Positions 8,767-11,700 of a stretch of 13,664 nt of DNA are shown piece after piece (the first letter of the stretch is position 1; the number at the start of each line of letters is the position of its first letter). A program made the position numbers. Origin of the DNA: a virus (Duplodnaviria; Heunggongvirae; Uroviricota; Caudoviricetes); IMG/VR virus record IMGVR_UViG_2695420430_000014. One strand, written 5' to 3'.

Positions 8767-11700
8767 TGAATTTTATAACCCATATACGGGCGCCAGAAAT
8801 GACGCCTTTTTTATTGCAGAAAAGCGAGAGGTAATTATGCGTAAACTTTATGCCGCCATTTTGTCCGCAGCCATTTGTCTGGCCGTATCCGGTGCGTCTG
8901 CATGGGCGTCTGAACATCAGTCCACGCTGAGCGCGGGCTATCTTCATGCCTCGACGAACGTTTCCGGCAGCGATGATCTGAACGGGATTAACGTGAAATA
9001 CCGTTATGAGTTTACGGACACGCTGGGAATGGTGACGTCATTCAGCTATGCAGGAGACAAGAATCGCCAGCTTACCCGTTACAGCGATACCCGCTGGCAT
9101 GAAGATTCCGTGCGTAACCGCTGGTTCAGCGTAATGGCGGGGCCGTCTGTGCGCGTGAATGAATGGTTCAGCGCGTATGCGATGGCGGGTGTGGCTTACA
9201 GCCGTGTGTCGACTTTCTCCGGGGATTATCTCCGCGTAATTGACAACAAGGGGAAAACGCACGACGTGCTGACCGGAAGTGATGACGGTCGCCACAGCAA
9301 CACGTCTCTGGCGTGGGGAGCTGGCGTGCAGTTTAACCCGACCGAATCCGTGGCCATTGATATTGCTTATGAAGGCTCCGGCAGTGGTGACTGGCGCACT
9401 GACGGTTTCATCGTGGGTGTCGGTTATAAATTCTGATTAGCCAGGTAACACAGTGTTATGACAGCCCGCCGGTTCAGGCGGGCTTTTTTGTGGGGTGAAT
9501 ATGGCAGTAAAGATTTCAGGTGTACTGAAAGACGGCACAGGAAAACCGGTACAGAACTGCACAATCCAGCTGAAAGCAAAACGTAACAGCACCACGGTGG
9601 TGGTGAACACGCTGGCCTCAGAAAATCCGGATGAAGCCGGGCGTTACAGCATGGACGTTGAGTACGGTCAGTACAGCGTTATTCTGTTGGTGGAAGGATT
9701 CCCGCCGTCACATGCTGGGACCATCACCGTGTATGAAGATTCCCGACCCGGTACGCTGAATGATTTTCTCGGAGCCATGTCGGAGGATGACGTCCGGCCG
9801 GAGGCACTGCGCCGTTTTGAACTGATGGTGGAAGAGGTGGCGCGTCACGCTGAGGAGGCGAAGAAGAATGCCGGAGAGGCGGAGACGTCAGCGAGGAATG
9901 CCGGCATATCAGCCAGTCAGGCAGAAGAGAGCGCTGCAAATGCTGACACTTCAGCAGGGGAGGCATCGGAGTCAGCCCGGCAGGCGGCAGAAAGTGCAGC
10001 CTCAGCAAAGCAGTCAGAGGATGCGTCCTCGTCCTCGGCTTCTGCGGCCGCTCAAAAAGCCAGTGAGTCATCACAAAGTGCAGCAGAAGCTGAATTGTCA
10101 AGAAAGACGGCAGAAAGTGCAGCCGGTAATGCAGCCAGGGATGCAACGACCGCAACAGAAAAAGCCCGGGAGTCAGCAGAAAGCGCACAGTCAGCGGAAC
10201 AAAGCAGGATAGCGGCGGAAGAAGCCGTAAACAGAATCCCCACCGTGGTGGGACCTCCCGGGCCAAAGGGGGAACAGGGGCCCGCGGGTCCTCAGGGGCC
10301 GAAGGGTGATAAGGGAGAGCGCGGTGACACCGGCCCTGTCGGGGCAACCGGCGAACGGGGACCGGCAGGTGATGCTGGTCCGGCAGGCCCGCAGGGGCCG
10401 AAAGGTGACAGGGGAGAGCGGGGAGAGACCGGTCTGACGGGAAATGCAGGTCCACAGGGTCCAAAGGGAGATACCGGTGCGGCAGGCCCGGCAGGCCCAC
10501 AGGGACCGAAAGGAGAAACAGGTGCGGCTGGCCCGGTGGGGGCAACCGGACCTCAGGGACCGAAGGGCGACCCGGGGGAGACACAAATCCGTTTTCGTCT
10601 GGGGCCGGCGAGCATTATTGAGACAAACAGCAATGGCTGGTTCCCGGATACAGATGGCGCACTCATCACCGGACTGACCTTTCTTGACCCCAAAGATGCC
10701 ACACAGGTTCAGGGGCTGTTTCAGCATTTGCAGGTCAGGTTTGGTGACGGGCCGTGGCAGGATGTTAAGGGGCTGGATGAAGTGGGCAGTGATACAGGCA
10801 GAACAGGAGAATGACATGAACGTACTAAAAAAACTTATGCAGCGTCTGTGCGGGTACGGAAAGCATGATGACCGTGAACACGGGGAGTTACTTACAGCAC
10901 AACTGCGTCTGGGGCCGGCAGACATCCTGGAGTCAGATGAGAATGGTATTATTCCGGAGCAGGCCAGGGTAATCACGCAGGTGGTGATACTGGATGCGGA
11001 TAAAAAGCAGATACAGTGTGTGGTAAGACCGCTGCAAATCCTGCGTGCTGACGGGACGTGGGAAAATATTGGCGGGATGAAGTAACCCGACAGCTTCACA
11101 AAACCGGAGTCCGGCTCCGGTTTTTGTTGTCATGTCCGGTGGATGTTTGTTAGGAAAGCAAAGATGGCAAAACTGCTGGAGGTTTTGTGGTTGAGTATGC
11201 CAATATAATTAATAGATTAAAGAGTTAGTTGTGAAGAAAATATGGATAAACAGGACGACGAATGCTTTCACCGATAAGGACAACTTTCCATAACTCAGTA
11301 AATATAGTGCAGAGTTCACCCTGTCAAACGGTTTCTTTTGCAGGAAAGGAATATGAGTTAAAGGTCATTGATGAAAAAACGCCTATTCTTTTTCAGTGGT
11401 TTGAACCTAATCCTGAACGATATAAGAAAGATGAGGTTCCAATAGTTAATACTAAGCAGCATCCCTATTTAGATAATGTCACAAATGCGGCAAGGATAGA
11501 GAGTGATCGTATGATAGGTATTTTTGTTGATGGCGATTTTTCAGTCAACCAAAAGACTGCTTTTTCAAAATTGGAACGAGATTTTGAAAATGTAATGATA
11601 ATCTATCGGGAAGATGTTGACTTCAGTATGTATGACAGAAAACTATCAGATATTTATCATGATATTATATGTGAACAAAGGTTACGAACTGAAGACAAAA

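Follow-up and report, generated by a model that had tools for sequence, protein, structure and literature searches.

What is a second copy of a tail fibre tip doing directly behind a fibre gene that already ends in one? The question is raised by a small open reading frame (ORF) at positions 10816–11085 of a 13,664-nucleotide (nt) stretch of viral DNA (IMG/VR record IMGVR_UViG_2695420430_000014), which represents the tail-module end of a lambdoid prophage and which is referred to below, at its full length, as the window. The ORF runs on the + strand from an ATG at 10816 to a TAA at 11083–11085, immediately after the side tail fibre gene, and encodes 89 amino acids (aa) plus the stop codon; a preliminary description, made from the sequence alone, had given its length as 90 aa. 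It is an intact, expressed late gene for a stand-alone paralogue of the C-terminal knob of the fibre (the PfC domain, Pfam PF06820), and purifying selection on its protein is strong, exceeding that on the fibre's own tip. As to its role, our tentative reading, to which we assign a probability of about 0.45, is that the small protein forms trimers and serves the fibre tip in trans, as an accessory or a partner in assembly that the phage can do without. The gene is already catalogued and has been noted in the literature on Shiga-toxin (Stx) phages, and the copy in the window is an ordinary instance of it, not a discovery.

A stand-alone copy of the fibre knob

The preliminary description had noticed a series of motifs shared by the small ORF and the end of the fibre, and formal comparison bore this out. 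BLASTP aligned residues 29–88 of the small ORF with residues 366–427 of the fibre (23 of 62 identities, 37%; E 8e-12). PF06820 (Phage_fiber_C, or PfC) matched the small ORF over residues 28–89 (119.2 bits, E 9.9e-35; profile positions 1–64 of 64), encoded at 10897–11082 on the + strand, and the fibre over residues 365–428 (123 bits, E 6e-36), encoded at 10587–10778 on the same strand. Since both segments lie far above the gathering score of the family (25 bits) and the BLASTP E-value is 8e-12, the likeness is beyond chance, and the idea that the ORF is a paralogue of the tip domain stands. Motifs common to both PfC copies are R-x-G-P, I, G-x-x-P, T, L-D, L-Q and D-G-x-W. The accompanying remark that no named family covers the arrangement has to be withdrawn: in addition to PF06820 there is phrog_576, a family of 89-aa proteins labelled "tail fiber protein" that the small ORF matches from end to end (residues 1–89 on positions 1–89 of 89, E 3.8e-59), and the arrangement is already in print (PMC5155283). 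RefSeq names the product (WP_001101707.1) "phage tail fiber C-terminal domain-containing protein". The family description of PF06820, the C-terminus of a prophage tail fibre, fits the neighbouring fibre and does not fit the small ORF, which is a separate protein. In searches of the small ORF, no Pfam family other than PF06820 matched at E-values up to 0.1 and no NCBIfam family matched, and hence no family of tail fibre assembly (Tfa) proteins.

The first 27 codons (10816–10896, + strand) are not homologous to the fibre. An AlphaFold2 (AF2) model of the monomer, built on a 13-sequence alignment (predicted local distance difference test score, pLDDT, 71.7), predicted a helix at residues 3–11, which is basic and amphipathic, a low-confidence linker at residues 13–24 (pLDDT <50) and a beta domain at residues 30–84. 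The PfC part of the model scored about 77–87 and was composed of strands only; a model built on a 6-sequence alignment was uninformative (pLDDT 54). The predicted all-beta PfC is consistent with the low helix content measured by Ghosh et al. 2012 (PMC3368898), who defined the fibre type EPclA and showed that PfC, which contains little alpha-helix, is its trimerisation domain and nucleates the collagen triple helix when it refolds; the small ORF is not discussed in that paper. A sequence search of the PDB with the small ORF found no homologue, and fold searches with its model returned only a sub-threshold match to a Mu tail fibre. The allele in the window differs from the Sp5-type family at its N-terminus by C14Y and a few other substitutions. 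A lipoprotein signal or signal peptide was considered for this N-terminus and rejected: the motif LCGC or LFGC resembles a lipobox, but only ~4–5 hydrophobic residues precede the Cys. The lipobox reading is further weakened because the second Cys is Tyr, His or Arg in many alleles, including that of the window, and the Citrobacter rodentium form is, on inspection, shorter still.

A ribosome-binding site and a terminator had been attributed to the small ORF, and both were recovered. A Shine–Dalgarno (SD) sequence, GGAG, is located at 10806–10809 (+ strand) within the final fibre codons and ends 6 nt ahead of the ATG (GGAG-N6-ATG), and the fibre stop codon (TGA, 10812–10814, + strand) ends one base before the ATG, giving the arrangement TGA-C-ATG. 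Judged from this layout, with the SD inside the last fibre codons, translation of the small ORF is probably coupled to termination of the fibre. The junction GGAGAATGACATG was present in 80 of 82 related loci, so that ribosome-binding site, stop and ATG are nearly invariant. Behind the ORF, an intrinsic terminator-like hairpin (about 11100–11124, with a U-run to about 11130, + strand) closes the unit formed by the fibre gene and the small ORF. Its folding free energy was −21.2 kcal/mol (z −4.53), and none of 200 shuffled sequences was equally stable. A strong terminator-like hairpin also lies between lom and the fibre gene (9463–9484), and no promoter-like site was found in 9300–11400. Because the fibre gene and the small ORF are flanked by these two terminator-like hairpins, their expression presumably needs antiterminated late transcription.

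Selection was measured on 85 related loci taken from IMG/VR, GenBank phages and E. albertii, which together with the window gave 86 copies. The small ORF was intact in 84 of them, and 62 distinct nucleotide alleles were distinguished. The mean pairwise ratio of nonsynonymous to synonymous polymorphism (pN/pS) among these alleles was 0.118 for the whole ORF, 0.30 for codons 1–27 and 0.045 for the PfC part, in which 4, 3 and 19 variable sites fell on codon positions 1, 2 and 3, respectively. For the fibre PfC of the same loci (51 alleles), pN/pS was 0.22. The PfC of the small ORF is under about fivefold stronger constraint than the tip of the fibre.

Spread and age of the pairing

A word-indexed search of 5.8 billion proteins returned 169 relatives of the small ORF, of which the best 120 were all ≤131 aa long and came from E. 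coli, E. albertii and C. rodentium. As none of these best 120 of the 169 is longer than 131 aa, no full-length fibre bears a tip of the small-ORF type, and the longer fused fibre for which the preliminary description had proposed to search related prophages did not appear among them. An exhaustive profile search of 1.84 billion cluster representatives yielded 84 clusters only, indicating a narrow family, and revealed a divergent stand-alone form of 79 aa in Salmonella enterica (P0126, P0178 and P0184); P0178 also belongs to phrog_576 (E 1.8e-23). In L088, a Gifsy-like Salmonella prophage, the 79-aa form overlaps the end of a collagen-free 468-aa fibre of PfN-Pf2-PfC architecture, and at a further Salmonella locus (L086) it directly follows a 212-aa non-collagen fibre ending in PfC. 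At both loci a strong SD precedes the small ORF, its start is an overlapping one, and behind it come a terminator-like hairpin and then effector genes (NleG or SopA-like).

Between E. coli and Salmonella, the PfC domains of the small ORFs are 64% identical and those of the fibres 35%; fibre and small-ORF PfC share 29–37%. The difference between 64% and 35% indicates that the duplication predates the E. coli and Salmonella lineages and that the small copy has evolved more slowly. The small ORFs of both also share the N-terminal motif M-x-I-[LF]-K-K-[LI]-x-x-x-L-x-G-x-x-K, which supports the annotated start. The small ORF is fixed directly 3′ of PfC-tipped fibres of four architectures (EPclA, the EPclB of podoviral Stx phages, PfN-Pf2-PfC and the short 212-aa form), and the pairing spans siphoviral and podoviral phages of E. 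coli as well as Salmonella prophages. Among GenBank phage records, 296 carried the small ORF and 296 a fibre-type PfC, with nearly the same breakdown by organism. A query across the fibre 3′ end and the small ORF matched 719 of 5426 complete E. coli genomes, at a median of 12 places per matching genome. In a scan of genome contigs, the small ORF was found only in E. albertii and on a 725-nt contig named "Xanthomonas pisi" (L084, NZ_JPLE01000138.1); the latter, with 90% protein identity, is almost certainly an assembly contamination.

Several individual sequences depart from, or illustrate, the common arrangement. The classical laboratory hybrid lambda h434 imm21 (OM418627.1, L002) carries the same pair of EPclA fibre and small ORF together with remnants of nleB, nleC and nleH. 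P0063 (L087:4-291), at a contig edge, has a deletion that joins collagen to the small-ORF PfC, P0121 combines the N-terminal half of the small ORF with the C-terminal half of the fibre PfC, and in P0179 a natural 1-nt frameshift carries the fibre reading frame on into the small ORF. P0146 (L090:3505-5202, Logan SRR17035117), a fibre of an uncultured phage, contains four tandem PfC-like repeats followed by collagen repeats. P0146 resembles the window in that one fibre makes repeated use of the same small beta module (VVVLDAD...LQVRRADGTW.EI), but its repeats are covalently joined and N-terminal to the collagen, and their Pfam match is faint.

The closest known counterparts are ORF68 of phage Sp5 (ECs1229), orf59 of VT2-Sakai and "gp59" of phi24B, which belong to the same family (about 90–97% identity, 89 aa) and, with the same junction, directly follow a PfC-tipped collagen-like fibre. 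That fibre is the podoviral lateral fibre EPclB (645 aa) in these phages, whereas it is a siphoviral EPclA side fibre (437–439 aa) here. With the PfC of EPclA and EPclB (PMC3368898) the small ORF shares the PF06820 domain, the conserved motifs and an all-beta model that matches the little alpha-helix reported; it differs in being 37% identical, in standing off the collagen shaft, in its private 27-aa N-terminus, in the lack of an acidic C-terminal tail and in a PfC that evolves about 5 times more conservatively. Tfa proteins (lambda Tfa, gp50 (U) of Mu and G of P2, of the Caudo_TAP type) are likewise encoded by a small gene directly 3′ of the fibre and are co-inherited with the distal domain. 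In contrast to these, the small ORF has no sequence match to Tfa families, and Tfa proteins are not paralogues of the tips they serve; nor does a folding requirement of the Tfa kind agree with the Sp5 homologue being dispensable while the ORF67 fibre is essential (PMC5155283), or with recombinant EPclA trimerising alone (PMC3368898). A second fibre-distal coding copy just 3′ of the fibre gene is also found in the invertible G/C segments of Mu and P1 and in diversity-generating retroelements. Unlike the invertible segments, the locus has no flanking inverted repeats and no invertase ORF was present in the window; unlike the retroelements, no reverse transcriptase ORF was present in the window and the two copies show ~71% nucleotide identity over 41 nt, as against near-identical template and variable repeats (TR/VR). 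In contrast to both, the second copy here has its own SD and ATG.

Expression and possible role of the small protein

The virion proteome spreadsheet of a phi24B preprint (doi 10.64898/2026.04.10.717836) lists the peptides ADGTWENIGGMK and VITQVVILDADKK with 3 peptide-spectrum matches (PSMs) each. Both are unique to the small ORF (gp59 in that phage), and ADGTWENIGGMK is its exact C-terminal peptide. The fibre C-terminal peptide, GLDEVGSDTGR, is listed with 47 PSMs. The database used for mass spectrometry (MS) held hypothetical fibre–gp59 fusion entries, with the authors' comment "Spike or just gp59?", and ADGTWENIGGMK and VITQVVILDADKK are common to the stand-alone and the fusion entries. In the part of the peptide list examined, there was neither a further small-ORF peptide nor a junction peptide, and gp59 is absent from the main text of the preprint, including its structural proteins. 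The occurrence of the two peptides in purified virion preparations indicates that the product of the small ORF is made and co-purifies with virions at a low level; the preliminary description had advised looking for it in virion proteomes, and this is where it was found. In another MS study of virions of related podoviruses (PMC12502783), the small protein is not mentioned.

Genetic evidence comes from the podoviral Stx2 phage Sp5, in which Mondal et al. 2016 (PMC5155283) made deletions: the fibre gene ORF67 was essential and ORF68 was not, and no defect of the ORF68 deletion mutant in plaque formation or lysogenisation on K-12 was reported. These authors found no frameshift signal and proposed ORF68 as a possible intragenomic reservoir for fibre variation. 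Annotators have read the gene in different ways. In the GenBank record of AU6Stx1 it is named "atfT, alternate tail fiber tip", with a +1 frameshift proposed, and in lambda h434 imm21 it is annotated as a "tail fiber assembly chaperone". A literature search by locus tag retrieved nothing functional on the small gene.

Considering these data as a whole, we propose a protein in which a flexible linker joins a short basic helix at the N-terminus to an all-beta PfC domain; by homology, this domain probably trimerises like the PfC of the fibre. It would act in trans at the distal end of a PfC-tipped fibre as its cognate but dispensable accessory, either as a helper in assembly or against aggregation, or as a loosely held partner of the tip. 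The PfC tip and its small partner occupy the place of distal stf and then tfa in lambda, and the small ORF would take the position of tfa in lambda-type fibre modules. On this proposal the small protein would be neither an obligatory chaperone nor a stoichiometric virion component, and neither a silent cassette nor a relic. The viability of the Sp5 deletion mutant (PMC5155283) speaks against an obligatory chaperone, and peptides far scarcer than those of the fibre in purified phi24B virions speak against a stoichiometric structural partner. Several points weigh against the proposed accessory role itself. The interaction between fibre and small protein is a putative one; deletion of ORF68 in Sp5 had no reported defect on K-12 (PMC5155283); recombinant EPclA trimerises by itself, in the absence of the small protein (PMC3368898); 3 PSMs per peptide, against 47 for the fibre C-terminal peptide in phi24B, could reflect a trace contaminant; and trimerisation is assumed from 37% identity, the AF2 model being a monomer on a shallow alignment. 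PfC-tipped collagen-like fibres are carried by most lambdoid and Stx-converting prophages of enterohaemorrhagic E. coli, and the phi24B preprint counts the function of the lateral fibre among the open questions (doi 10.64898/2026.04.10.717836). A strictly co-inherited partner that is more conserved than the fibre tip offers a handle on the spread of toxin and effector genes by these phages.

Other explanations give the protein a firmer place in the virion, or no place in it. It could be a stoichiometric structural tip, the trimer docking its basic N-terminal helix on the acidic fibre tail to form a second distal knob that serves as an adhesin for a conserved receptor. Near-equimolar synthesis, as translational coupling predicts, would suit such a knob, as would the slower evolution of the small PfC, the acidic fibre tails (DEVGSDTGRTGE in E. 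coli, EVSDDNIQEN in Salmonella) facing basic small-ORF N-termini (MNVLKKLMQRL, MTIFKKIKH), the covalently joined tandem PfC-like knobs of P0146 and the peptides in virion preparations. Nevertheless, the phi24B peptide counts are about 16-fold under that of the fibre C-terminal peptide, the protein is not named among the structural proteins in the text of the preprint, the Sp5 deletion mutant infects K-12 normally (PMC5155283), and the putative docking is drawn from charge complementarity alone; we regard this explanation as unlikely. Equally unlikely in our judgement is an evolutionary version of it, in which an ancestral tandem-PfC fibre, as in P0146, underwent gene fission, and the 89-aa trimer re-attaches non-covalently through its basic helix to the acidic tail, the outer knob recognising a conserved structure on natural hosts. 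If this were so, the outer knob would be easily lost in purification and irrelevant on K-12, which would explain the low MS signal and the absent laboratory phenotype. A conserved function unrelated to the fibre, as a host-directed, lysis-related or exclusion-related small protein encoded at the end of the late operon beside effector cargo, is improbable. It would agree with the lack of a phenotype in the Sp5 morphogenesis assays (PMC5155283) and with the constant position of the small ORF at the border of an exchangeable region of type III secretion effectors (NleB2, NleC and NleH here; NleG or SopA-like in Salmonella), but it sits poorly with the homology to the fibre tip domain and with the strict co-occurrence with PfC-tipped fibres on the same side of the terminator. 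In addition, its sequence shows neither an evident signal peptide nor a hydrophobic segment that would suit a lipobox, and it has no promoter-like site upstream. That the ORF is a decaying, functionless remnant of a once longer fibre gene split by rearrangement, a possibility raised in the preliminary description, is scarcely credible. It does duplicate the 3′ end of its neighbour, and it is dispensable in the laboratory (PMC5155283); yet 84 of 86 copies are intact, its PfC part has a pN/pS of 0.045, the start and ribosome-binding site are conserved, orthologues persist in both E. coli and Salmonella prophages, and peptides have been detected in phi24B. The disrupted reading frames of a non-coding relic were accordingly not seen in the relatives, and purifying selection, intactness and E. 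coli–Salmonella conservation refute a pseudogene.

Two further explanations would join the sequence of the small ORF to that of the fibre. Very doubtful is a programmed +1 frameshift near the fibre end that fuses the fibre to the small ORF and yields a minor variant with an alternative or second knob, as the AU6Stx1 annotation of atfT proposes and as the fusion entries and the comment of the phi24B authors envisage. The three junction designs (window, L086 and L088) all place the small ORF in the +1 frame, which is weak evidence because few frames are possible; a low-efficiency shift would fit the low peptide abundance, and the natural mutant P0179 encodes such a fusion. Against it, by reading of the sequence, GGA GAA TGA C contains no canonical slippery site and would not allow good re-pairing at +1, no motif is common to the junctions of E. 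coli and Salmonella, and the junction RNA is no stabler than shuffled sequences (z +1.18). The +1 frame is open for 46 codons upstream of the ATG, as expected by chance (P 0.23, from synonymous resampling of fibre codons); in Salmonella it is already closed 1–5 codons before the ATG, and 5 of 82 E. coli loci have it closed 7–13 codons before. Where the fibre gene is overlapped, its synonymous diversity is only slightly reduced (0.100 vs 0.136), the small ORF has a conserved SD, ATG and N-terminal motif of its own, no junction peptide occurs in the part of the phi24B list examined, and Mondal et al. found no signal (PMC5155283). A shift within the last few fibre codons is conceivable but has nothing in its favour; dual coding or a frameshift far upstream was rejected on the openness expected by chance, the closure of the frame in other lineages, the weak synonymous suppression and the lack of RNA structure. 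Less probable still is the silent intragenomic reservoir put forward by Mondal et al. 2016 (PMC5155283), in which the ORF would serve mainly as a cassette of DNA for altering the fibre tip by recombination into the fibre gene. The rare chimeras P0063 and P0121 and the 14-nt identity cgtctggggccggc that starts both PfC segments in the window (10596–10609 and 10906–10919, at the RLGPA motif) speak for this explanation. However, a rarely used cassette cannot hold a pN/pS of 0.045, the best 120 of 169 relatives are ≤131 aa and P0063 lies at a contig edge, conservation extends to the start codon, the SD and the N-terminal motif, the product is translated, and there are no flanking inverted repeats, recombinase or reverse transcriptase. 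Moreover, the identity at cgtctggggccggc is confined to a subset of alleles, the small ORF varying synonymously there (CGA/CGT, GGA/GGG), and is absent from the Salmonella pair. A conserved recombination site at this 14-mer was accordingly rejected as an allele-specific coincidence of synonymous variants. Both Salmonella PfC copies use CGG for Arg, which may hint at local gene conversion now and then.

Gene layout of the window

The first ORF of the window (25–414) is a partial gpT with a match to Phage_tail_T, the downstream part of the frameshift pair G/GT of lambda, whose G gene and slippery site fall outside the window on its upstream side. It is followed by the tape measure gene H (407–2968), then by M, L, K and I, by J (5371–8769) and by lom (8837–9436). 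The side tail fibre gene (9501–10814, + strand) has, by Pfam and RefSeq, the EPclA architecture of PfN, coiled coil, collagen repeats and PfC that was described earlier (PMC3368898). Its RefSeq start is the ATG at 9501, and the longest ORF starts at a GTG at 9495. The Pfam matches are PF08400 at residues 3–135, Collagen at residues 253–311 and PF06820 at residues 365–428, and the RefSeq coding sequence is WP_073569691.1, from a genome 100% identical to the window.

Downstream of the small ORF and its terminator lies type III effector cargo, comprising nleB2 (11262–12242), nleC (12276–12566), cut off after 96 aa, and, from 12960, an nleH-like ORF. Between the last two, translation of 12610–12720 (+ strand) revealed the C-terminal remnant of a lambda-type Tfa, labelled in RefSeq as a pseudogene, "tail fiber assembly protein, missing N-terminus". 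No intact tfa gene was found in the window, and this remnant lies 1.5 kilobases from the small ORF. A 45-nt sequence just past the hairpin of the small-ORF terminator (11121–11165) recurs at 12814–12858 with 87% identity, and copies of an old tfa-distal sequence appear to border the effector cassettes.

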